Below are positions 1,784-44,522 of a DNA stretch of 64,000 bases, one piece after another. The position numbers were made by a program, and so were the translations under genes. Positions within the stretch are counted from its first letter, which is position 1, and every line of letters begins with the position of its first letter. This DNA is from Clostridiales bacterium (lineage in GTDB: Bacteria; Bacillota; Clostridia; Christensenellales; JAISNN01): positions 5,643 to 69,642 of the forward strand of contig JAITOU010000027.1 in the NCBI GenBank assembly GCA_031289755.1. Reading direction: 5' to 3'. Below the pieces are notes generated by a model, which saw nothing but the letters and a program-made list of their open reading frames with translations, made no database searches and was not told where the DNA came from.

Positions 1784-3058
1784 TCACTTAACGTACTTGA
1801 CAGTATTACATAAAAAACAGGAGTTTGTTTCGCTTGTGAGCTGAATGCTTCCGTCCGAAATTTTTGTTTCGATAAGGGCATTCTCGGGGACAAAGCAAAT
1901 GGTTTCAATGCAGTATTGACCGGGTGACATTATCCTTATTTTTCTCCCTACGATATCGCCGTTAATCGACAAACACAAGTACGGTTCTCCCAAAACAATG
2001 TGAAAGACGTCGATATAGGACGATATTCTCATGATTTTGTTTCCAGAACCGCTGTTAAAACGCGTAAGGTCTTCCGTGCCGAAGCCGTCCGCATCCTTCC
2101 AATCGTATTTTAGAGAGCCGCCTTCCGATATGATTTCAACTCCGTTTTTTGTCATCATGCCGTATTCAGGGAAGAACTTTTCGGCAGGGTCGCCCGGAGG
2201 TCCTTGCGGACCGGCATCTCCCTTTTGACCGGGGTCGCCCTTTAAGCCTTGCTGTCCGACCGCCCCCGTATTGCCTTGTGTCCCCGTCGCGCCTTTCGGT
2301 CCGACAGGACCCGTTTGACCGGGAATGCCTTGATCTCCCTTAGGTCCTTGCGGCCCTACTTGACCCATCGGACCTTCCGGTCCTGTCGGTCCCGCGTCGC
2401 CTTGCGGTCCTTGCGGCCCTATCGGTCCGGGACAGCCCTGCGTGCCTGCCGGACCCATAGGTCCCATAGCTCCTGTCGGACCTTCCGGTCCTGCCTCTCC
2501 GAAGTCGCCCTTAGGTCCTTGCGGTCCTGACGGTCCTTCCGGTCCGGCAGGACCTTGCGGTCCTCTCGGACCTTGGTCGCCCTTAGGTCCGATAGGACCT
2601 CTCGACCCCGTCGGTCCTTGCGGACCGGGATTGCCCTTTACGCCCTGCGGCCCGATACAGCCGGGGTCGCCCTGCGGCCCTATGTCGCCGCGAATACCTT
2701 GCGGACCGGGCATACCCTTAGAGCCGGACGGACCCTTTGGTCCTATCGGCCCGGCACAGCCTTGTATTCCTTGCTGTCCGGCTTCGCCCTGTTCGCCCTT
2801 GATACCTCTCGGACCCATAGGTCCTTCCGCGCCCTGCGGTCCCGGCGGTCCGACGGGGCAGGGATTACACGGCGGAAGTGTTTTTTGGTCGCAGCATTTA
2901 GGCGTCGGACACAAAGGTTTTCCCGGAATTTGGACATTACCTTGCGGTCCGTTCGGATAGACGGGAGAAGAAATGTAATAGCCTGCGTCGCAACCGCACT
3001 TCATATTGATTTCGGCGTCGCAATATTTACAGCGATATATCTTGTTAAAATTATTCAT
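1784..3058 (-). CDS. collagen-like triple-helix-repeat protein (BclA/exosporium-like architecture)
   Basis: 424 aa with GGAGGT upstream of the ATG. The N-terminal ~69 aa contains nine Cys. About 75 uninterrupted G-X-Y triplets follow. The C-terminus is a ~130-aa globular domain. No signal peptide. Confidence 0.85.
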
Positions 3059-10010: not shown

Positions 10011-10667
10011 TTACCTTCTTATGCCGCCCGACGGAAACAACGGCAAATCGAATGCGCCCGTGCATACTTCTTCGGTAAATTCCTGACAAGGCGGTATGAA
10101 GCAATATCCGTATGACGGAACAAGCAGCTCGACCTCGATGACGACCTTTGTGATTATTGTCAGGCAGCAGGTTACGTTAAAGGTATTTGCGCCTATATAA
10201 GAGCCTTCCGGACAATTGCAGTTGACGACCGTATCGATTTCAAACGGCATAATCGACGGTTCGGGTATAAACAGGAGAATATCGGCGGCGACCGTAAGGT
10301 CTGCCGTACCCGTGTAGCGTGTGTTTGCCGCGTCGACAAAAATGACGTTCAGCGGAACCGTTATATTAAATCTGCATCTGGAACAGCCCTTGTTGTCGCT
10401 CAACGGCTCTATGACGAGATTTGTGATAATACCTACATATGTAGAGCTTGCGGCACTGACGAATCTGAAAGGCTCGGACGGAGTCGATGTGGTCGGCGCA
10501 TAAGCCGTGACGACAATATTTTCATTTTCGAGTGTTTCCTGCCTGATACAGGCGTCAAAAACCTTTTTGACCTGTATGCAGACCCGTTCGTTAAGACCGC
10601 CGAGAGGGTTTCCGTTTATCGGACCCGGAGTCCTTTCCGGTCTCGGATTGTTATTTAAAAAAGACAT
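10011..10667 (-). CDS. hypothetical cysteine-rich protein (possible spore-surface component)
   Basis: 218 aa with a strong GGAGGTGA Shine-Dalgarno. About eleven Cys, including GCSRC, NCNC and TCC clusters. N-terminus is PRPERTPGPINGNPLGG. No signal peptide and no confident family. Confidence 0.6.
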   Translation of the reverse strand: MSFLNNNPRPERTPGPINGNPLGGLNERVCIQVKKVFDACIRQETLENENIVVTAYAPTTSTPSEPFRFVSAASSTYVGIITNLVIEPLSDNKGCSRCRFNITVPLNVIFVDAANTRYTGTADLTVAADILLFIPEPSIMPFEIDTVVNCNCPEGSYIGANTFNVTCCLTIITKVVIEVELLVPSYGYCFIPPCQEFTEEVCTGAFDLPLFPSGGIRR

Positions 10668-10696: not shown

Positions 10697-10866
10697 TAGC
10701 TTTCTTGCAAAACTAAATTTGTATAGATAATGTACAGATTTTTGTGTCTGCCGAGCCTTACATGACAGGTGCGTAAGCCTTAGCGTTGCGTAATTGATTT
10801 GCAAAGTTCGGCAGAAGCAGGAAGCTATGCCTTAGCTTGCGTGAAGTTAGTTTTGCAAGAAATCTA
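10697..10866. repeat. MITE-like inverted-repeat element, family 1 (copy A)
   Basis: Termini are ta|gctttcttgcaaaactaaatttgtatagata ... aagttagttttgcaagaaatc|ta. The body is colinear with the copies at 26400-26515 and 44355-44522 (inverted). Confidence 0.75.
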
Positions 10867-10954: not shown

Positions 10955-11824
10955 ATGACAGATTTGCATATACACACAAGGTACAGCGACGGAACGGATA
11001 CTTGCTCGGAATTGCTCGGCAAGCTGATACTCAACGGAATAACGACCTTTTCGATAACCGACCACGATTTTGCCGGCGGAAATTTTGCCATGATAGAAGA
11101 ATTGAACCGTGCGGAAGCAAAGTTAAATTTTGTCACGGGAATAGAAGTGTCGTCGATATTTGACGGCACGGAAATGCACTTGCTCGGTTACGGCTTTGAC
11201 TTGGACAACGACGGTATCAAAAAACTTATCGAGAACGGAAGCCGCTTGCGTAGAGAGAAACTCTTTGCGATGTTTAATCACTTAGAGAGTAAGCACGGAA
11301 TATTTTTACCCGAAGCCGATAAGGACGAATTGAAAAACCGTGTCGTCGTAGGCAAGCCGAATGTAGTCGCTTTGATGATAAAGAACGGTATTCAAGGAAC
11401 GGTCGGCGAATTGATAGAGCGGTATTTGGATGATTTGGATACCGAGTCGTTTAAGTCTGACGCAAGGAGAGTTATCGAAGCCGTCTTAAAGGCGGGCGGC
11501 GCGGTGTCGCTGGCGCACCCGATAGAGATTATGAAAGAATACGGTTGGGATTTTGCAAAAATCGGAAGCCTTGCAAAACGGCTTAAAGACGTAGGGCTGA
11601 CCGCCTTAGAGGTCTTTCATTCGTCGCACGGGCAAAAAGAGCTTGCCGAATACAAGACCATAGCGGATAAGTACGGCTTGCTTATATCCGGCGGCAGCGA
11701 CTATCACGGAGAGTTAAAGACTGTTAAGCTCGGACGGCTAAATGCCTGCGGCAAAGAGATTGCCGAAGAAGATTTGACTATTCTTTCGGCGGTCAAGGTA
11801 GTATATAAGGGGGCGGAAGAATGA
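10955..11824 (+). CDS. PHP-domain phosphoesterase (TrpH/YciV-like)
   Basis: N-terminal DLHIHTRYSDGT, ITDHD, later SLAHP and GGSDYHG metal-ligand motifs. ATG at 10955 is preceded by AAGGAG. Confidence 0.85.
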   Translation: MTDLHIHTRYSDGTDTCSELLGKLILNGITTFSITDHDFAGGNFAMIEELNRAEAKLNFVTGIEVSSIFDGTEMHLLGYGFDLDNDGIKKLIENGSRLRREKLFAMFNHLESKHGIFLPEADKDELKNRVVVGKPNVVALMIKNGIQGTVGELIERYLDDLDTESFKSDARRVIEAVLKAGGAVSLAHPIEIMKEYGWDFAKIGSLAKRLKDVGLTALEVFHSSHGQKELAEYKTIADKYGLLISGGSDYHGELKTVKLGRLNACGKEIAEEDLTILSAVKVVYKGAEE

Positions 11825-12729
11825 AATCAAAGGTAAATTTTCACATACATACTACGCACAGCGACGGCGGTAAAACACCCGTCGAGATTGCCGCTCTCTT
11901 GGCGGACGCAGGCGTAAAATATTTTGCAATAACCGACCACGACCAAGTGTCGGGTAATACCGAAGCGGCGGAGCAGGCAGCGAGACACGGCTTAAAGCAT
12001 ATCGACGGCATAGAGCTGTCGTGCTGTTTTGCGGACGGCGAAATCGGCTTGGACGAGTCGTGGGTGGTGCATATTCTCGGACTTGGCGTGGACATTGCAA
12101 AAATGCAGGCTGAGCTAATACGGATTGAAGGCGAAAAGGACGTAAGGCTTCGCGAATTATTTGATTTGCTTGCCGCTGACGGCTACAAGATAGAATCCAA
12201 ACGCGTGACGATAAACGGCAGAATTACGGCGCGTAAAACGATAGCAAAGGAATTGATAAATAAAGGCTATGCCGCGAACGGCGACGAATGCTACGAAAAA
12301 ATTCTCAACGCCGAAAAGTACCGCAAGTACGCAAAAGCCAAGCCGTCAATAAGAGAAGGGATAGCGATAATCCACGCCTGCGGCGGTCTTGCCGTATGGG
12401 CGCACCCTTTCGGCGTGACAAGGGGCGGTAAAAAAGAGATAAGAGAAGAGCAGGTCATAGGGCTTTTAAGCTATATGATTGCTTACAAAATAGACGGTAT
12501 AGAAGCGTATTATCACAAATATTCGCCGGAACGGATTCGGCTCTTAGAAGGGCTTGCCGATAGCAATCAATTGATAAAGTCAATCGGTACGGACTTTCAT
12601 TGCTCGCCGTTTGACTCCGATAAACACCCCGAATACGTCGAGCTTCAAAAAAAAGAAAGTATCGTCTTCGATGCGGACGGCATATCGCCCGACGAAAGGA
12701 TAGCGGAAATTTTGGTGAATAGGGGATAG
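11821..12729 (+). CDS. PHP-domain phosphoesterase, tandem paralogue
   Basis: NFHIHTTHSDGG, ITDHD, WAHP and GTDFH motifs. Its start overlaps the upstream stop (ATGA). Confidence 0.85.
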   Translation: MKSKVNFHIHTTHSDGGKTPVEIAALLADAGVKYFAITDHDQVSGNTEAAEQAARHGLKHIDGIELSCCFADGEIGLDESWVVHILGLGVDIAKMQAELIRIEGEKDVRLRELFDLLAADGYKIESKRVTINGRITARKTIAKELINKGYAANGDECYEKILNAEKYRKYAKAKPSIREGIAIIHACGGLAVWAHPFGVTRGGKKEIREEQVIGLLSYMIAYKIDGIEAYYHKYSPERIRLLEGLADSNQLIKSIGTDFHCSPFDSDKHPEYVELQKKESIVFDADGISPDERIAEILVNRG

Positions 12730-12860
12730 CTTTTTGCCATACGGCAAGAGAAATTGACCGGCGTCGGGATAACTAAATTTGCCTTGCGGCAAGTGAAATT
12801 GACTGCGTCAGTGAAGTTCGGCAGAGCCGAGTGAAATTGCGGCGGTCGCCGCAGTTATTG
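12730..12860. repeat. cluster of short GC-rich hairpins, each preceded by a GWGAAATTG-like word
   Basis: Hairpins: ttgccatacggcaa, (agagaaattg)accggcgtcggg, ttgccttgcggcaa, (gtgaaattg)actgcgtcagt, cggcagagccg and (gtgaaattg)cggcggtcgccgca. The cluster lies between convergent genes. Confidence 0.5.
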
Positions 12861-12893: not shown

Positions 12894-15539
12894 TTATCTT
12901 TGTTTGACTTGCACCGAATCGGCTTTTTTCTTTGCTTTTCTTTCGACAAGCTTGACGATTTCGACGACCACTATCGGGAAGGCTGCTATTGCGAGAGCTA
13001 TCAGATATAGCTTGACGGGGAGCAGTACAAGTCCGAAGGCGTCCGAAACGAAAGGCGTAAAGATGACAAAGAGCATTAGCGCAAAGCCTGCAAGAGCGGC
13101 GAGATTGAGCTTTTTGTTGGAGAAAGGATTCATTTTAAAGAGCGAGCGGTCGGAGCGCATATTGAAGGAATGAATGATTTGCGTCAGAGCAAGAATGATA
13201 AATGCCGTTGTCTGCGCGCCTTCGTGACTGCCCGTGACATAGCTTCCGAGCCAATATCCCAAAAGCGTCAATGCGCCGAACATAGTGCCTTGTAATAAAA
13301 TTTTTGTTCCGTAGCCGTGAGCAAAAATGCCTTCCTTTGCCGGCTTAGGCTTGCGCAGCATGACGTCGGGGTCTATTTGTTCCATGCCGAGAGCGATTGC
13401 GGGCAGGCTGTCGGTGACGAGATTTATCCAGAGAAGCTGCATAGACAAGAGCGGCGGCATTTTGAATATCAGCATGGCAAAAAACACCGTGAGAATTTCG
13501 CCGATATTCGTGCCGAGCAGATAGCCTATGACCTTTTTGATATTGTCGTATATGCCGCGCCCTTCCTTGACGGCTTGTATGATTGTGGCAAAATTGTCGT
13601 CGGTTAAGGTGATGTCCGCCGCCCCCTTGGCGACGTCCGTGCCGGTGATACCCATAGCACAGCCGATGTCTGCGGCTTTTAGAGCCGGAGCGTCGTTGAC
13701 GCCGTCGCCGGTCATAGAGACGATTTCGCCTTCGTCCTGCCACGCCTTGACTATGCGTATTTTGTCGGAAGGGGATACCCTTGCATAAACGGCGATGTTT
13801 CTTATTCTTGCGCGCAGCTCGTCGTCGGACATACGCGAAAGCTCTTCGCCCGTGACGGCTTCGCCGCCGTCCTTTAATATGCCGAGTTCTTTGGCTATTG
13901 CCGACGCGGTGATTACATGGTCGCCCGTTATCATGACGGGGGTTATACCAGCACTGCGGCATTCGTCTACGGCGGCTTTGGCTTCGGGACGCGGCGGGTC
14001 TATCATGCCGACAAGCCCCATAAAGGTCAGTCCGCGTTCGAGTTCTTCGATATTTAGGTCGCCCGACTCGTTAAGCTCCTTATAGGCGACGCCGATTATA
14101 CGGAGTGCTTGCTTGCTCAAAGCTTCGTTTATAGCGGCGGCTTTTTTTAAATCGCCCTTGACACAGCGCGGCACAAGCATATCGAACGCGCCTTTGACTA
14201 CGGCTATGCGTTTGCCGCCCGTTTCGTTGACCGACGTCATCAGCTTGCGGTCGGAATCGAACGGAAGCTCGGCTATGCGCGGATATGACGACGATAAGGA
14301 AGCTTTATCTATTCCGTTTAGCAGTGCGGCGGCGACAATCGACGTCTCCGTAGGGTCGCCTATATGAATTTCCTTTCCGTTGTCGTTGACGACGCTGCCG
14401 TTACAGCACAGGACGGCGTAGGTCAAAAGCTTTCTGATATTATCGTCATTATTCGGGCTTATATCGTCGGCGTCCGCCGAGCCGTCAAGGTAGGCTTTTT
14501 TGAGAGTCATTCTGTTTTGGGTCAGCGTTCCCGTCTTGTCGGAGCATATGACCGACGCCGAGCCGAGCGTCTCTACGGCCGGCAGACGGCGTATAATGGC
14601 ATTGCGTTTGACCATTCTCTGTACGCCGATAGCGAGAACGATAGTAACTACGGCGGGGAGTCCTTCGGGGATAGCCGAAACCGCCAGCGAAACCGCAGTC
14701 ATAAATAATTGGCGCGGGTCGATATGGAAGAGCAAGCCTATCAAAAAGATTATCGCGCAAGCGCCGAGCGCGACAAAGCCGAGATATTTGCCCATTTGGG
14801 CGAGCTTTTTTTGGAGCGGCGTGCCGGAATCGGTCTGGTCGTTTAAGAGATTGGCGATTTTGCCCATTTCGGTATTCATTCCGGTAGAAGTGACTATCGC
14901 CTTTGCCGTACCGTAAGTAATACTGCAACCCGAAAAGACCATGTTTGACCTGTCGCCCAAGGGCGCGCCGCCGTCGGGGAGAGCGTCAAAGGCTTTTTCG
15001 GCGGCTACCGATTCGCCCGTCAGAGCCGATTCTTCGGATTTTAAAGACGATGACGAGATAAGGCGTGCGTCCGCCGGAATCATGTCGCCGGCTTCTAAGA
15101 GAATCAAATCTCCCGGAACAAGCTCTTCGGCGTCTATCACGGCGTCCTTGCCGCCGCGTATGACCTTTGCGTGGGGAGCGGACATACTTTTTAGAGCGTC
15201 TAAGGCTTTTTCCGCTTTGTTTTCTTGCGAAACGCCCATGACGGCGTTTAATATGACTATAAGGACTATCAGGGCAGGCTCAAAAAATTCTTTAAGACCT
15301 TCGTTGTTGAGTACCGCGAGAACAAAGGAAACTGCGGCGGCAATCAAAAGGATAATTATCATTACGTCCTTGAATTGCTCAAAAAACTTGCGCAGATAGC
15401 TTTTTTTCTTTGTTTCTTTCAGTTTATTTTTTCCGTATTTTTCGGTGAGAAAGGGAAGCGCGTCGAGATTGACGCCCGTTTTTAAATCGGAATTAAGTTC
15501 TTCCGCGAGTTCGGTGGGTTTTTGGGTGTGTGGAAGCAT
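12894..15539 (-). CDS. P-type Ca2+-transporting ATPase (P2A/YloB-like)
   Basis: 881 aa. Motifs: [11 protein letters not shown] phosphorylation site, [22 protein letters not shown], and 10-TM topology. Confidence 0.95.
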
Positions 15540-16969: not shown

Positions 16970-17133
16970 TAGATTAGTCCTATAACCTATCCGTCGATAT
17001 ATTTTGCGTCTTTTCGCTTTATGCGGCGTTGCATTTTCCTTGTGTAACTTACGCTACACGGCGTCAAATGCGCCTTGTATAAGGCAAAAATCCGCTAAAA
17101 TATGTTTGCCGTGTAGGTTATAGTACTAATCTA
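16970..17133. repeat. MITE-like inverted-repeat element, family 2 (copy C)
   Basis: ta|gattagtcctataacctatccgtcg ... cgtgtaggttatagtactaatc|ta. The whole unit is self-complementary. It is homologous, in reverse orientation, to the outer element at 26320-26588. Confidence 0.75.
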
Positions 17134-20215: not shown

Positions 20216-20605
20216 GGAAAAAAATATGAGCTTACAGCATGAAATCACAGAAAATAAAAATTGTTTTTTGCCAAAGTACGAAAGAAAATAAGAAAATGCA
20301 ATTTAATATCCGTAAAACAATTGACAAATAGCAAATTTTATAATAAACTATAAAAAGAATAAAGACACAAAAGAGTTATTTATGAAAAATGTAAAAAACA
20401 CGGCAATAATCAAAGAAAAATACGAAGGAAAACGCGATATAATATCAGCTATATCGGGGGGGGTACACCTATTATATAGCCGTATTTTATAATGCGCTAA
20501 AACAATTTAATATATTATCAAAAAATCAAAACAATTCCGGTTTTTCACTTAGGTGAGATAACGGAGTTGTTTTTTTGTTATAAAAAAAATGCGGAGGACA
20601 AAAAG

Positions 20606-21634
20606 ATGTGTTTTACACGGCAAAAAAACTTAACCTTCGGCGGCAATACCGAGCATATCGCTTGGGTATATGACGCGAGCGGCGACAGACGCTTATCGGT
20701 TTTTGCGGAAAGTCCGCATGAGGTATTGTGCGTCAAGGACGGCGCGTTCTGCGAAACGTACCGCAATCAAAAGGCGGTGCTTAGTAACAAGCGAAAGGAC
20801 GGACTGCTAAAGCTGTATTTTGTCAACGTCAAGCTGCCTATGAGCGACACTTGGGGTACGCAGGAAAGGTACGAATACAAGGACGCAAAAACGGGACGCA
20901 TAATCGGCATAGGCTGCCGCGGCAGTTATGCCTTTCATATCTGCGACAGCAAAAGCTTTATCGAAAAGATTTTCGGCATACAAAAGCTCATGACAAAAAC
21001 CGAGCTTTCAAGCATAATGAAATCCAAGCTGATGGACGAAATGAGCGACCATTTTGTGTCGGCTCTCGTCAACGAAAATATTTCTTATGAAGAATTAGAC
21101 TTATCCCGGAAGACGATTGCCAAAAGCTTTCTTCCGATTTTAAATACGTCTTTTGAAAAATACGGTATACACGTCGAGGAATTTATCATCGAAGGCTTTG
21201 ACAAGCCGGAAATATTGAGAGACAGGAGCAATAAAAACGTTGACAAGGCGGAGGATTTTGAGGATATCACGACGGACAACGAGCGAAAATCCGAGCTTCT
21301 CAAGCAATACGCAGGACTCGAAAAGCAACAAATGGAGCTTTCGGAGACGAGAGCGACGCATTCTGGAAACTTAAAGCGGATTCAAGCCGCCGCCGATAAA
21401 GACGTAGAAAAGACGGGCTATGAAGCTAAGGAGATGACTTACAAAGAGCTAAGAGAGCAGGACAGAGAGGACATCGGCAATATTGCCGCCGCCGAAGCAA
21501 AGGTGAGAGAAGCGACAAAAATTCCGGAAGTGACGGTGATAGCAAACGCCGCACAAGACGGCAAATGTCCGCATTGTGGGGGAGCGGTTACGGCAAATCA
21601 GATTTTTTGCCCGACGTGCAGAAGAAAGTTGTAA
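20606..21634 (+). CDS. SPFH-like (COG4260/YdjI 'virion-core-like') protein with a C-terminal zinc ribbon
   Basis: ATG at 20606 has GGAGGA 7 nt upstream. A globular N-terminal ~200 aa is followed by a charged coiled-coil segment. The terminus is CPHCG-x10-CPTC. Family assignment is by recollection of the YdjI architecture. Confidence 0.7.
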   Translation: MCFTRQKNLTFGGNTEHIAWVYDASGDRRLSVFAESPHEVLCVKDGAFCETYRNQKAVLSNKRKDGLLKLYFVNVKLPMSDTWGTQERYEYKDAKTGRIIGIGCRGSYAFHICDSKSFIEKIFGIQKLMTKTELSSIMKSKLMDEMSDHFVSALVNENISYEELDLSRKTIAKSFLPILNTSFEKYGIHVEEFIIEGFDKPEILRDRSNKNVDKAEDFEDITTDNERKSELLKQYAGLEKQQMELSETRATHSGNLKRIQAAADKDVEKTGYEAKEMTYKELREQDREDIGNIAAAEAKVREATKIPEVTVIANAAQDGKCPHCGGAVTANQIFCPTCRRKL

Positions 21635-21663
21635 TAAAAAATAATATATAGGGAGCAAAAAAA

Positions 21664-23748
21664 ATGGATACAATAAAGGTCAAATGTACTACGTGCGGTG
21701 CGCAGTTGTCGCTGTCGGAGTCGGGCAAGACGGCAGAGTGTCCGTATTGCCACAATTTCTATGTGGTGGAGACCGCCGAAAAGCTCAATCACGTCGCGGA
21801 CGAAAAGACGGGCAAGCTCAAAAACCTGAAAAAGCAATTAGACGGAGCGGTCGGCGTCAACGACGTACGGAATATGTCAAAGCACGCTTCGGCGATTCTC
21901 GGCATAAATCCGTCGGACTATACGGCGGTATATTACCATGCCTACGCGGAGCGCGCGCTCGGCAAGAGCGCGTATCTCTATGACTTCTACGCAGCCGCGC
22001 CTTTGGCTCATACGGAGAACGAGCTGCAAGAGATAATCGGGCATATCAATCTTTACAGCGATTTGAGAGAGCGGTCGAGAGTAGAGACTTTTTTGATGTC
22101 GCTCGGCGATATCGACAAGGAGCGCACGATAACCGAATACCGCCGCGAGTTTAAAAGGCGTGAGACGTTGGAGCAGCTTTATGACGATATTCCGCGCGAC
22201 GTCTTTGTCTGTCACAGCAGCAATAATAAGAGCGACGCGGAAGACGCGGTATCGGCTTTGGAGAACGACGACAATATTTGCTGGATTTCCACAAGGAACT
22301 TGCGCCCGAACGATTCGGAAAACTATTGGTCGGATATCCGAAAGGCGATAAGGTCCTGCGGAATATTTTTGGTCGTTTCGGGAGCCGATGCTATGATCTC
22401 AAAGGACGTCAAGCAAGAAATCGAGCTTGCGCGAGAGCTTGGCAAGCCGCGCTTAGAATTTAAAATCGACGGCACGCCGCACACGCCGAAATTCAAGGAT
22501 TTTTTTGACGGTATAAAGTGGGTGGATGCTATCGGCGGACAGCGGTCGGTCGCGCTTCTCGAGCTTTGCAGGCGGGTATACGACGAAAAAGAAAAGCTCT
22601 TGAATAAGGACAAGAAGCCGAACGAAATAGAAGAAATCAAACGGCTGATACAAGAGCAAAAGACCGTCGCGCCGGTTGTCAAGCATACGGAGTATGCCGC
22701 GTCTTACGCTATGAACGAAGAGGCACTTTTAAAGAAAGCAAAGCTGCAAATCGAAGAGGGGGATTTTGCCGGCGCAAAAATAACCTGCGATAAGATAAGC
22801 GATATCAACATAGAATGCGCCGAGTTGTGGATAGATTATCTTTTGATTGAATACGAAAAGAAAAATCTCAGCCTATTTAAGACTTTCGATTTTATCTATG
22901 ATTATGAATCAAATTATGCGATATGGAATGAGAGAGAATATAAAAATGCGATAAAGTTTGCAAACGCCGCCCAAAAAGAAGAGCTTGAAAGTGTAGCGGA
23001 AGAGATAAGAACTAGAAAAAAAATTGCGGAAAATGTAGCCCAATACGACAAATTCGAGAAAGTCCTTTATGGAGAAACGGCAATACAAGAAGCTTTTGCT
23101 TATGAACCTGTTTACTCAAAAAAAGTGGACATCGGCAACAAAATAGTTGAATATATCAACGATTTAAAGAAAGTGTCTAGTTTCGAGTCATATTCCACCG
23201 ATTTAATTGATGATGCCGAAGGATTTAAAAATAGTCTAATAGATAAATATAGTGACCGAGATGAATGGGAAAGCCAGGCATGCAATATGGAAGGTAAAGG
23301 TACAAAATCAGAGAAATTTAAAAGAATAGAAGAATTTTACACTCAAAGAATTAAATTTCTTAACTTATGGTTTCATAACGGCAAAATTCTTTTAAATCCG
23401 AGAGAAGCAATGGACGAAATATTGGAAGAGGTAAGACTTGAGAATGAAAGCAGCGAAGAAGAGGAAAGAAGAGAAAGAAGAGCGTACTTAAAAAAACGTA
23501 AAAAAAGAGGTTTATTATATTGTATCCCATGGTTTATTTCTCTAATAGCAACAATTATAGCTCCTATATATGGTATGTTACTGGCTGCACTTAGTGTCTT
23601 CGCTTCCATTCCTTTATTTATCGTTGCAACGGTATACAGACATAATCAACTATGGGACGGAAAGAAAAATCCGAGAAGAATGCATATATGGATAATAAAT
23701 ATCGTTTTGGTTGTTACAACTATATTATTGCTATCACCTTATGCATAG
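21664..23748 (+). CDS. zinc-ribbon / TIR-domain / helical-repeat protein with C-terminal transmembrane helices
   Basis: 694 aa. N-terminal ribbon is CTTCG-x14-CPYC. The TIR-like core is DVFVCHSS...DAEDAVSALE...ICWISTRNLRPN...IRSCGIFLVVSG...SKDVKQEIELA. The C-terminus has a KKRKKR patch plus 2-3 hydrophobic helices. Confidence 0.8.
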   Translation: MDTIKVKCTTCGAQLSLSESGKTAECPYCHNFYVVETAEKLNHVADEKTGKLKNLKKQLDGAVGVNDVRNMSKHASAILGINPSDYTAVYYHAYAERALGKSAYLYDFYAAAPLAHTENELQEIIGHINLYSDLRERSRVETFLMSLGDIDKERTITEYRREFKRRETLEQLYDDIPRDVFVCHSSNNKSDAEDAVSALENDDNICWISTRNLRPNDSENYWSDIRKAIRSCGIFLVVSGADAMISKDVKQEIELARELGKPRLEFKIDGTPHTPKFKDFFDGIKWVDAIGGQRSVALLELCRRVYDEKEKLLNKDKKPNEIEEIKRLIQEQKTVAPVVKHTEYAASYAMNEEALLKKAKLQIEEGDFAGAKITCDKISDINIECAELWIDYLLIEYEKKNLSLFKTFDFIYDYESNYAIWNEREYKNAIKFANAAQKEELESVAEEIRTRKKIAENVAQYDKFEKVLYGETAIQEAFAYEPVYSKKVDIGNKIVEYINDLKKVSSFESYSTDLIDDAEGFKNSLIDKYSDRDEWESQACNMEGKGTKSEKFKRIEEFYTQRIKFLNLWFHNGKILLNPREAMDEILEEVRLENESSEEEERRERRAYLKKRKKRGLLYCIPWFISLIATIIAPIYGMLLAALSVFASIPLFIVATVYRHNQLWDGKKNPRRMHIWIINIVLVVTTILLLSPYA

Positions 23749-24271: not shown

Positions 24272-24300
24272 TTGACAAAAAGCGGTATTGTGGTTATAAT
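24272..24300 (+). promoter_or_regulatory. sigma-A-type promoter (TTGACA-N17-TATAAT)
   Basis: ttgaca at 24272-24277 and tataat at 24295-24300. The -10 hexamer is the start of the first 16-bp repeat unit. Confidence 0.6.
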
Positions 24301-24390
24301 AAACTTATCAGATAATAAACTTGTCAGATAATAAACTTGTTAGATAATAAACTTGTTAGATAATAGACTTGTTAGATAATAGACTTCTTG
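24295..24390. repeat. 16-bp tandem repeat x6 ending in a solo family-1 element terminus
   Basis: Units are tataataaacttatca, gataataaacttgtca, gataataaacttgtta (x2), gataatagacttgtta and gataatagacttcttg. The last runs into tagacttcttgcaaacctaacttcgcaatctaag (to ~24415), which matches the family-1 end. Confidence 0.85.
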
Positions 24391-24443
24391 CAAACCTAAC
24401 TTCGCAATCTAAGTCAAAAAAATAAAAGGATAAAGGGACGTAT

Positions 24444-25774: not shown

Positions 25775-26224
25775 ATGGAGAAAACTATTTCCGTAAACAA
25801 AAAAGCCTATCATGAATATTTTGTCGAAGAGACCTTCGAGGCGGGCGTAATACTCGCCGGCAGCGAGGTCAAGTCCGTGCGTCAGGGCAACGTCAATATG
25901 AGAGATAGCTTTGTCTATATAAGGGGAACGAACGTGCGTCTGATAAATATGCACATCGCGCCTTATGACAAGGGGAGTTTTTTTAATCCCGATGCCAAGC
26001 GTGAACGCATCTTGCTTTTGAACAAAAAGGAAATCAATAAGCTTAGGAGCAAAGCCGACCAAAAGGGCTACACTATAATCCCTTTAAAAATGTATTTTAA
26101 AGACGCTCTTGTCAAGGTTGAGATAGGACTTTGCAAGGGCAAAGAATTGCACGACAAGAGAAAAACCCTAAAAGAAAGAGATATAAAGCGCGACACCGAC
26201 AGACAAATTTCATTTTTGAAATAG
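25775..26224 (+). CDS. smpB: SsrA-binding protein SmpB
   Basis: NKKAYHEYFVEETFEAGVILAGSEVKSVR...LINMHIAPY...RERILLLNKKEI matches SmpB along its full length. Confidence 0.95.
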   Translation: MEKTISVNKKAYHEYFVEETFEAGVILAGSEVKSVRQGNVNMRDSFVYIRGTNVRLINMHIAPYDKGSFFNPDAKRERILLLNKKEINKLRSKADQKGYTIIPLKMYFKDALVKVEIGLCKGKELHDKRKTLKERDIKRDTDRQISFLK

Positions 26225-26319: not shown

Positions 26320-26588
26320 TAGACTTGTATCATACTTAGACGGTGGCGGATTTTTGGGTTAGACGAGGCGCATTTGACGGCGTGTAGCGTAAGCTGCATT
26401 AGACTTCTTGCAAAACTAAATTTGTATAGATAAGGTATAGATTTTTGTGTATGCAGCACTTTGCAAAACAGGCGCATAGCCTTAGATATGCGAAGTTAGT
26501 TTTGCAAGAAGTCTATTAGGAAAATACAACGATGTATAAGCCTAAAAGGCGAAATAGATGCCGCCGTCTAAGTTAGGATAAAAGTCTA
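26320..26588. repeat. family-2 MITE-like element (copy D) interrupted by a nested family-1 element
   Basis: Termini are ta|gacttgtatcatacttagacggtgg ... ccgccgtctaagttaggataaaagtc|ta. The inner arms (gcggatttttg..gcgcatttgacggcgtgtagcgtaag / ggaaaatacaacg) are colinear with the reverse complement of 16970-17133. Confidence 0.75.
26400..26515. repeat. family-1 MITE-like element (copy B), nested inside copy D
   Basis: ta|gacttcttgcaaaactaaatttgtatagataaggtatagatttttgtgt ... gcgaagttagttttgcaagaagtc|ta. This is the shortest copy at 116 bp. Confidence 0.8.
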
Positions 26589-26610: not shown

Positions 26611-27510
26611 ATGCCGATAATTATTCCCAAAGCTTTGCCCGCATACGATATACTTACAAAAGAGAATATCTTTGTAATGAATGCGGAACGTGCCGTCGCG
26701 CAGGATATCCGCCCGATAGAGATAGCCGTGCTAAATCTCATGCCGACAAAAATCGACACCGAAACACAGCTCTTGCGTCTTATAGGCAATACGCCGCTTC
26801 AAGTAAACGTGACGCTTTTAAAGACGGGAAGCTACAAGGGGCGCAATACCTCAGAAGAACATCTCGAAAAATTTTACAAAAATTTTTCATCTGTCAAGCA
26901 CAGGCATTTTGACGGCATGGTCATAACGGGCGCGCCCGTCGAAACGCTTGCATTTGAAGATGTATTGTATTGGAACGAGCTTAAAGAAATAATGGACTTC
27001 GCCGACAAAATGGTGACGAGTACGATATATATTTGCTGGGGGGCGCAAGCCGCTCTTTATTATCATTACGGCATACAAAAGGTCGCCTTAGCTTCAAAGA
27101 TGTTCGGCATTTTCCCGGTAAAAAAATTGGTATGCGACCCGCTTTTAAAGGGTATGGACGACGTGTTTTATATTCCGCATTCGCGGCATACGGCGGTTGA
27201 CGAAAAAGCCGTGTATGACTGCAACGCGCTCAAAGTCCTTGCGGCGTCGGAGCGCGCGGGTATATCGATAGCCAAGTCCGCCGACGACAAAAAGATTTTT
27301 CTTACGGGTCACTCCGAATACGACAGATTTACCTTAAAAAAAGAATACGAACGCGATTTGAGCAAGGGCTTAAAGATAAGCCTTCCGTACAATTACTTCT
27401 CGGACAAAGCCTGCCAAAACGTCAAAATGAAATGGCTTAGCGCGGCAAATCTGATTTTTTATAATTGGATAAATTATTATGTGTATCAGGTGACGCCTTA
27501 TAACTTTTAA
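26611..27510 (+). CDS. metA: homoserine O-acyltransferase MetA
   Basis: MPIIIPKALPAYDIL..ENIFVM...QDIRPIEIAVLNLMPTKIDTETQLLRL, WGAQAALY and HSRHT motifs. Confidence 0.9.
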   Translation: MPIIIPKALPAYDILTKENIFVMNAERAVAQDIRPIEIAVLNLMPTKIDTETQLLRLIGNTPLQVNVTLLKTGSYKGRNTSEEHLEKFYKNFSSVKHRHFDGMVITGAPVETLAFEDVLYWNELKEIMDFADKMVTSTIYICWGAQAALYYHYGIQKVALASKMFGIFPVKKLVCDPLLKGMDDVFYIPHSRHTAVDEKAVYDCNALKVLAASERAGISIAKSADDKKIFLTGHSEYDRFTLKKEYERDLSKGLKISLPYNYFSDKACQNVKMKWLSAANLIFYNWINYYVYQVTPYNF

Positions 27511-43219: not shown

Positions 43220-43786
43220 TTGAGCGAAAATGTTCTTATAGTTTCGTCGCTGGAAAAAGACGCGGAGAAGCTTAGCCGTCTCTTTCATTCGTATGATATG
43301 GAGACGACTATTGTCAGCTACGCGAGCAAGGCGCGCCGTAAGCTTTTGGAGAACGATTTTTCACTCATAGTCGTCAACACGCCCTTGTCCGACGAGTTCG
43401 GTACGGAGTTTGCGATAAACGCCGCCGAAAAAACCTATGCCGGAATTTTGCTTTTTGTCAAAGCCGACCTTTTTGCGACGACCGTCGAAAAGTCCGAGCA
43501 AAGCGGCGTATTTGTTCTCGAAAAACCGCTGACCGCACCCATTAACGAGATTATAAGGCTGATGAGAGCCGTGTCGTTCAGAATGCGTTCGGCACGCCGC
43601 GAAAACGAAAAGCTTACGAGAAAAATATCCGAAATGCGCACGGTGGAACGTGCGAAAATCGCGCTCATACAGTATGAAAATATGTCGGAGGAGGAAGCTC
43701 ACCGCTTCATCGAAAAACAAGCCATGGACAAGCGCGTCGGCAGGGGAGAAATCGCCGCCGAGATTTTAAAGAGATTTGGGGATTAA
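43220..43786 (+). CDS. ANTAR-domain RNA-binding antiterminator with a pseudo-receiver N-terminal domain
   Basis: TTG start with AGGGAG upstream. C-terminal ANTAR region: MRTVERAKIALIQYENMSEEEAHRFIEKQAMDKRV. The receiver-like half has VLIVSS and SLIVVN where canonical receivers have DD and the phospho-accepting D. Confidence 0.85.
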   Translation: MSENVLIVSSLEKDAEKLSRLFHSYDMETTIVSYASKARRKLLENDFSLIVVNTPLSDEFGTEFAINAAEKTYAGILLFVKADLFATTVEKSEQSGVFVLEKPLTAPINEIIRLMRAVSFRMRSARRENEKLTRKISEMRTVERAKIALIQYENMSEEEAHRFIEKQAMDKRVGRGEIAAEILKRFGD

Positions 43787-43790
43787 GTGA

Positions 43791-43830
43791 ACGCCGCGCA
43801 AATTAGATAAATTTTAAGCGGCGTCTTTTT
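43791..43830 (+). terminator. intrinsic terminator formed by an inverted copy of the 45-bp repeat unit
   Basis: acgccgc-(20-nt loop)-gcggcgt followed by cttttt, starting 5 nt after the ANTAR gene stop. The sequence is the reverse complement of the unit acgccgcttaaaatttatctaatttgcgcg. Confidence 0.6.
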
Positions 43831-43905: not shown

Positions 43906-44165
43906 TACTTGCTTAAAATTCATCTCCTTTGCGCGTTGTTCCCTAAGTCAACGCCGCTTAAAATTCATCTCCTTTGCGCGTTGTTCCCTAAGGGAACGCC
44001 GCTTAAAATTCATCTATTTTGCGCGTTGTTTCACAAGTCAACGCCGCTTAAAATTTATCTAATTTGCGCGTTGTTTCACAAGTCAATGCCGCTTAAAATT
44101 CATCTAATTTGCGCGTTGTTCCCTAAGTCAACGCCGCTTAAAATTTATATCATTTTCGTGGTCTT
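43906..44165. repeat. 45-bp tandem repeat, 5 full units plus 1 partial
   Basis: Units start at 43911, 43956, 44001, 44046, 44091 and 44136. Consensus is gcttaaaatYcatctNNtttgcgcgttgttYcMYaagKSaaYgcc. Units are contiguous with no spacers. Each unit can fold (aacgccgc/gcgcgtt). Confidence 0.9.
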
Positions 44166-44264
44166 TCTTGTCTTTGACGCATTTTTTATTTGTCAGTTAA
44201 TCTCATTTGCGGTATGCGCAGGGTATAGGCGTATGCCGCATTTTTGCATTTTTTGGCTTTTTTT

Positions 44265-44282
44265 GTTTTGCAAGAAGTCTAA
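44265..44282. repeat. solo family-1 element terminus
   Basis: gttttgcaagaagtcta matches the family-1 right end. No partner terminus is recognisable to the left. Confidence 0.5.
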
Positions 44283-44354
44283 TTTATAAAAAAATCAAAA
44301 ATAGGGGGATAGGCATTGTAAAAATATCCTTTTTATGATATAATGTAAAGCGAA

Positions 44355-44522
44355 TAGGCTTCTTGCAAAACAAATTTCGCGCAATTTAAGGCATATCTTA
44401 TTGCGTCTGCCGCGCCTTGCAAAACAGTTACGCAAAGCGTCGGCTTTGTACCCGCTTGTCAAAGTCCGGCAGGTACAAAAATCTAATCTTATCTATACAA
44501 ATTTAGTTTTGCAAGAAGTCTA
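44355..44522. repeat. MITE-like inverted-repeat element, family 1 (copy E, inverted relative to A/B)
   Basis: ta|ggcttcttgcaaaacaaatttcgcgc ... atctatacaaatttagttttgcaagaagtc|ta. Confidence 0.75.

Follow-up and report, generated by a model that had tools for sequence, protein, structure and literature searches.

Nested MITE insertions are well known in plants, where they serve to infer insertion preference. Among bacterial repeats, the Correia elements of Neisseria and the ERIC, RUP, and BOX repeats are 100 to 170 bp long, have inverted ends, occupy intergenic sites, and are often co-transcribed as hairpins. Correia elements are flanked by TA, and full-length as well as internally deleted size classes occur among such repeats; to our knowledge, Correia elements have no identified transposase partner. 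Flanking TA is also expected of IS630/mariner elements, which duplicate TA. Within the IS5 family, ISAba27 belongs to the ISL2 subfamily (PMC7031236), and ISs of the ISL2 group, such as ISCaa2/3, are about 915 bp in length and have two ORFs and a 275-aa transposase (PMC3196728).

Here, we analyzed a 269-bp non-coding composite (26320-26588) in a 64-kb stretch of DNA, hereafter the window, from a metagenome-assembled genome named "Clostridiales bacterium," whose next relatives are Christensenellales and Borkfalkia. Proteins with Spo0A-C and SipL domains are encoded in the window, and SpoIVA is encoded in a related locus. The composite is probably a MITE inside an older, unrelated MITE, with the inner family (family 1) carrying ends of the IS5 family (ISL2/IS702-like) and having been mobilized in trans; we hold this reading with good confidence. 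It offers a clean and checkable case of one transposon nested in another, in the genome of an uncultured, gut-type member of the Clostridiales. The features on which the argument is built are as follows.

25775-26224, plus strand: smpB, upstream flank of the composite (Pfam SmpB, E = 2e-58)
26320-26399, plus strand: left arm of the outer element (terminal inverted repeat, 26320-26346), aligning to 16970-17133 when the latter is reverse-complemented
26346-26398, plus strand: conserved 53-nt core of family 2, 87% identical to 17043-17095
26400-26515, plus strand: inner family-1 MITE, 116 bp, internally deleted, with perfect 20-nt termini TAGACTTCTTGCAAAACTAA
26516-26588, plus strand: right arm of the outer element (terminal inverted repeat, 26561-26588), likewise aligning to reverse-complemented 16970-17133
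26611-27510, plus strand: metA (homoserine O-succinyltransferase), downstream flank (Pfam HTS, E = 1e-126); its product shows 100% identity to a protein of a "Clostridiales bacterium" MAG
16970-17133, minus strand: uninterrupted 164-bp copy of family 2, running opposite to the outer element
10697-10866, plus strand: full-length family-1 copy, 170 bp, with terminal 20-mers
44355-44522, minus strand: inverted full-length copy of family 1 (168 bp), with terminal 20-mers
24380-24413, plus strand: truncated copy of family 1 (solo end); a 16-bp tandem array lies before it and grades into it
44262-44281, minus strand: solo family-1 end, one mismatch to the terminal 20-mer

Removal of the inner unit leaves an outer element of 153 bp (26320-26399 plus 26516-26588) with the ends TAGACTTGTATCATACTTAGACGG and (reverse-complemented) TAGACTTTTATCCTAACTTAGACGG. 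A preliminary description of this DNA had claimed that its arms are colinear with the reverse complement of the uninterrupted element at 16970-17133 (here, the reference), quoting a 26-mer match between the two; this match is present, with one mismatch. In a global alignment, the joined arms were 69% identical to the reference and scored 123, compared to -34 ± 10 for shuffled sequences. When the arms were aligned separately, positions 26-74 of the left arm matched reference positions 38-86 (score 71) and positions 2-60 of the right arm matched reference positions 93-151 (score 33, compared to 15.2 ± 2.4 for shuffles and reached by 0 of 1,000 of them). The junction thus falls at about reference position 92, and the arms, both of which beat their shuffles, are colinear across it. 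The mobility inference of the preliminary description thereby withstands the refutation that the description itself had proposed, a failure of the arms to align.

The complete 116-bp family-1 unit between the arms was likewise borne out, its two terminal 20-mers agreeing with the consensus without a mismatch. The same description had placed this unit exactly at the tip of the family-2 hairpin. It does interrupt the element near its center, but not exactly at the tip: a short central stem-loop lies immediately 5' of the insertion point, which is position 80 of the 153. Independent copies of both families exist elsewhere in the window, in both orientations, and transposition of a family-1 element into a family-2 element is well supported. 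The pattern is that of plant nested MITEs, in which an older element is split by a younger one whose ends are intact, and the host element is restored once the younger one is removed; the present case differs in being bacterial and in involving two small families. That the outer element is the older of the two is suggested by the nesting and by the state of the ends. The nesting itself is ordinary biology and leaves the understanding of MITE function unchanged.

In the window, family 1 comprises three full copies and two solo ends. Its terminal 20-mer was found eight times in the 64 kb when up to 3 mismatches were allowed, compared to 0.01 occurrences expected by chance. As single-stranded DNA, the inner element folds into one long hairpin (-28.3 kcal/mol, z = -7.0). 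Its ends are complete, but it is without 53 internal nucleotides that are present in the 168- to 170-bp copies, and this deletion sits between two GCCTTAG direct repeats. The copy at 10697-10866 shares 86% identity with the inner copy over 116 aligned nucleotides and 81% with the copy at 44355; since the copies are only 81 to 86% alike, they are not recent.

Both families have several properties of MITEs. The copies are small (116, 164, and 168 to 170 bp), and no credible ORF was found in any of them, the only ORFs being spurious ones of 24 to 52 aa. They end in terminal inverted repeats of 36 nt in family 1 (86% complementary in the inner copy) and 20 to 25 nt in family 2, and they are dispersed over unrelated contexts, although family 2 has only two copies. 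All copies are intergenic, and their neighbors, a PHP-domain gene, sua5, metA, and two genes without a Pfam match, are unrelated to each other. In size, inverted ends, intergenic sites, and the presence of size classes, the elements resemble the Correia, ERIC, RUP, and BOX repeats, and they share TA flanks with the first of these; however, they have no sequence similarity to any of the four.

Two tandem arrays lie next to the solo ends of family 1. Within 24272-24413, 5.7 copies of the 16-bp unit ATAATAAACTTGTTAG follow a perfect TTGACA-17-TATAAT promoter and shift base by base until they equal the solo family-1 end; each unit also makes a promoter-like TTGTTA-16-GATAAT site. A 45-bp tandem array (43911-44145, 91% matches) is found just past an ANTAR-domain gene (43220-43786), which is clustered with genes for glutamine synthetase and glutamate synthase. 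This array has an inverted partner copy at 43781-43824, and the solo family-1 end at 44262-44281 lies beyond it.

The two copies of family 2 are in opposite orientations, are 69% alike, and have no known partner. The uninterrupted element has 20-nt inverted ends that are 95% complementary, and its hairpin has a z of -7.6. Five positions in the ends differ between the two copies, each of them altered on both arms together, which makes the copies look like representatives of two subfamilies. The core holds a short stem-loop, TGTAGC-GTAA-GCTGCA, that finishes just 5' of the insertion point. Identity between the copies is 86.8% in the core, compared to 60.5% elsewhere in the element (Fisher p = 6e-4). 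The core (26346-26398, 17043-17095) is thus better conserved than the ends, which is the opposite of the usual MITE pattern.

Most of the spacer between smpB and metA is taken up by the composite, whose last base lies 23 nt upstream of the metA start codon. Since metA genes often carry regulatory leaders, it might be read as one functional metA leader, a riboswitch or attenuator, instead of two mobile elements. This reading is close to refuted, and we give it almost no weight. Even at E = 10, an Rfam scan of the region returned no relevant family, only weak matches to plant miRNA hairpin models, and a riboswitch or leader was rejected on these results. Both parts of the composite recur beside unrelated genes and in either orientation. 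The related species point in the same direction: in three of them, with MetA proteins 75 to 79% identical to the one encoded here, no family-1 or family-2 ends were found in about 65 kb. In one (L099), smpB and metA are only 4 bp apart, and in another (L098), a 472-bp spacer consists of unrelated tandem repeats with a unit of about 95 bp. Relatives thus lack either family and have different spacers or almost none, which identifies the composite as a lineage-specific gain and not as a conserved leader. The spacer repeats of L098 (9529-10000), which are unrelated to families 1 and 2, comprise four to five tandem units containing AAGACTTAT.

No presence/absence polymorphism or empty site was found in a close strain, the only other sample with this organism, reached through SmpB and a 218-aa protein, being 100% identical. 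In a publicly available assembly of this strain from short reads, contigs break within the family-2 core and within the 16-bp array, a typical effect of repeats on short-read assemblies. Recognition of these repeats is therefore of value for annotation, as they break such assemblies and occupy the leaders of housekeeping genes, metA and sua5 among them. Searches in wider collections gave no further copies: the family-2 core had 0 matches in the metagenome collection, the 14 matches to family-1-specific ends in that collection included no true family-1 copy, neither family matched viral contigs, and BLAST of both family-2 sequences against plasmids found no match. In the full-text literature, the family-1 end sequence retrieved unrelated primer matches only. 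Five metagenome contigs (L103, L106, L107, L111, and L113) carry a near-palindrome, TTCTTGCAAAACTAAATTTGCAAGAA, after which some 80 nt are conserved (GGGTGCGTGGGCTTTCTGCCG...GTTAACGTAG...); an Rfam scan of four of these loci gave no match at the gathering score.

Mobilization of both families had been attributed to a transposase of the IS630/Tc1-mariner type. The evidence from the family-1 ends leads elsewhere. A scan with the terminus TAGNYTTCTTGCAAAACWAA, covering one genome per species, recovered 96 loci, compared to an estimated 17 or so expected by chance. They are mostly from Campylobacterota (Sulfurimonas, Sulfurovum, Nitratifractor, and relatives), and across the loci of this phylum the same terminus leads into several different interiors. 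Among the 96 loci are 27 paired-end elements of 57 to 905 bp. The 905-bp element is an insertion sequence, found in L069 (837-1741) and also in L084, that shares the terminus TAGACTTCTTGCAAAACTAA with family 1; the identity extends over 20 to 23 nt. One family-1 end, in the orientation of 26400-26515, equals the end of the L084 element on the side of the transposase C terminus over 23 nt, or 26 nt with the adjacent bases. Beyond about 23 to 26 nt, similarity between family 1 and this insertion sequence ceases.

The two ORFs of the 905-bp insertion sequence overlap at an A8 run, and the fused (frameshift) protein of 280 aa reaches 178 bits on the NCBIfam model NF033581, "IS5 family transposase" (cutoff, 140), and contains the Pfam domains HTH_Tnp_4 and DDE_Tnp_4. 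Its plasmid-borne relatives include the following.

Sulfurospirillum IS: 57% protein identity to the fused transposase
IS702 family: 45% protein identity
ISMae4 family: 45% protein identity
ISAba27 family: 40% protein identity

The end motif is kept in these relatives, as TAGACATCTTGCAAAACTC in the Sulfurospirillum IS and as TAGAACTCTTGCAAAAGTC in an IS702-family copy. Given the identity of its ends with those of an insertion sequence whose transposase fits the IS5-family model, family 1 carries ends of the IS5/ISL2 type and not of the IS630 type; the ISL2/IS702-like subgroup is assigned from the 40 to 45% protein identity to named ISs and from published descriptions. The likely mobilizing enzyme is thereby corrected from IS630/mariner to an IS5/ISL2-type transposase.

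With about 0.9 kb and two frameshift-joined ORFs, ISCaa2/3 are built like the 905-bp insertion sequence. MITEs derived from IS5-family elements (IS702, ISMae4, ISAba27, ISCaa2/3) are, like family 1, small, non-coding, and multi-copy, and have GA after the TA. They differ from it in that the family-1 interior is unrelated to the partner insertion sequence and this partner was found only in Campylobacterota. Family 1 also stands apart from the Correia elements by its clear match to IS5-family ends. In Campylobacterota, many MITEs of 57, 59, 90 to 92, 104 to 107, 128, and 383 bp end in TAGACTTCTTGCAAAACTAA (L003-L097), and their interiors are of at least several unrelated kinds. Outside this phylum, elements with these ends were seen in a Bacteroidota MAG (L015, 225 bp) and in an unclassified MAG (L022, 57 bp). 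The identity of ends across phyla hints at a wide horizontal spread of a single IS lineage.

As first described, the window contains no transposase: none of its 50 ORFs of at least 120 aa has a transposase domain, and tblastn found none. Among the fetched loci, none from Clostridia encodes a transposase; all transposase-bearing loci are from Campylobacterota, so the partner insertion sequence in the present lineage is deduced, not seen. We infer that an IS5-family transposase is, or formerly was, active in this lineage of Clostridiales. In the proposed course of events, a family-2 element some 153 bp long, the older of the two, would first have resided between smpB and metA, and a family-1 element would later have been pasted into a TA near its center. 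The terminal inverted repeats of family 1, about 20 bp long, would serve as binding and cleavage sites for an IS702/ISAba27-type (ISL2-like) DDE transposase of the IS5 family. This enzyme, supplied in trans from an insertion sequence of about 0.9 kb that is, or formerly was, elsewhere in the genome, would excise the family-1 element and insert it at TA. Family 2 presumably moved in the same way.

TA is present on both sides of all five full copies of the two families in the window, in agreement with the initial account, and on both sides of 22 of the 27 paired-end elements in other genomes. Like these copies, MITEs derived from IS630/Tc1-mariner elements are bordered by TA and have short inverted ends, and mobilization of both families by such a transposase would account for the TA beside every full copy. 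The end sequence of family 1 sets it apart from such MITEs: the only transposase-bearing element with matching ends belongs to the IS5 family, and the end motif is retained by relatives down to 45% protein identity. Nor is TA duplication diagnostic of IS630/mariner, since among PIF/Harbinger elements and IS5 relatives duplications of 0, 2 (TA), or 3 bp occur (PMC12730594). We therefore consider IS630/Tc1-mariner mobilization of both families very unlikely; it is disfavored for family 1 and could still hold for family 2.

As TA is a palindrome, a target duplication is indistinguishable from a part of the inverted end, and under either reading of the TA the junction differs by 1 to 3 nt from the uninterrupted copy. 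In the preferred reading, the TA would be the duplicated target site and not belong to the inverted end. No empty sites for the 27 paired-end elements were found among the fetched loci. We also considered a Harbinger-like duplication of 3 bp (TWA) and rejected it, the bases past the TA not being repeated.

Promoter-like sites adjoin three of the family-1 sites, all of them called as consensus matches only. At 44316-44344, a TTGTAA-17-TATAAT site with an upstream TG (10 of 12 matches) ends 11 nt before the copy at 44355; on the minus strand, a site at 10900-10872 faces the gene at 10011-10667, with the copy at 10697-10866 in between; and the perfect TTGACA-17-TATAAT at 24272-24300 precedes the tandem array and solo end. 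The copies lie in untranslated leaders near promoters, and the position of these sites makes it probable that the elements are transcribed as leader hairpins. A regulatory effect of the copies would be speculation. Within the composite itself, the search for a promoter yielded a single weak site, which overlaps the metA start codon, and this candidate was dismissed.

These observations also bear on the reading that the repeats are former transposons, now immobile, that the host has retained as leader-RNA hairpins or promoter-proximal modules, with the nesting recording ancient movement only. The three abutting promoter-like sites, the strong hairpins (z of -6 to -7.6), the divergence of copies that are not recent, the conservation of the family-2 core above its ends, and the failure to find a transposase in the lineage all fit it. 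However, the promoters concern three sites only and are consensus matches, the elements are absent from the same genes in related species, and in neither family do the elements keep a constant orientation toward the downstream gene, an argument against an RNA role that depends on direction. We judge host retention of immobile repeats to be improbable, although less so than mobilization by an IS630/Tc1-mariner transposase. It is tempting to speculate further that the family-1 end belongs to a large, apparently undescribed, cross-phylum group of the IS5/ISL2 type that repeatedly spawns MITEs with unrelated interiors, and that the copies and the 53-nt family-2 core are retained here as promoter-proximal leader hairpins; taken together, these two propositions are a long shot. 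Trans-mobilized MITEs, one nested in the other, remain our preferred reading of the composite.

Several further features of the window were recorded. A Gut-1 RNA motif (Rfam RF01706, 59.6 bits) at 12770-12842 lies in a 164-nt intergenic gap between a PHP-domain gene at 11821-12729 (plus strand) and a P-type ATPase gene at 12894-15539 (minus strand). At 20567-23748, a 694-aa protein with a TIR_2 domain is encoded directly after an SPFH/Band-7 protein, and these genes may form a defense-type pair. On the minus strand, 1784-3058 encodes a 424-aa protein with collagen triple-helix repeats, which accounts for the GGTCC-rich periodic repeats of 9 and 18 bp at 2190-2860.
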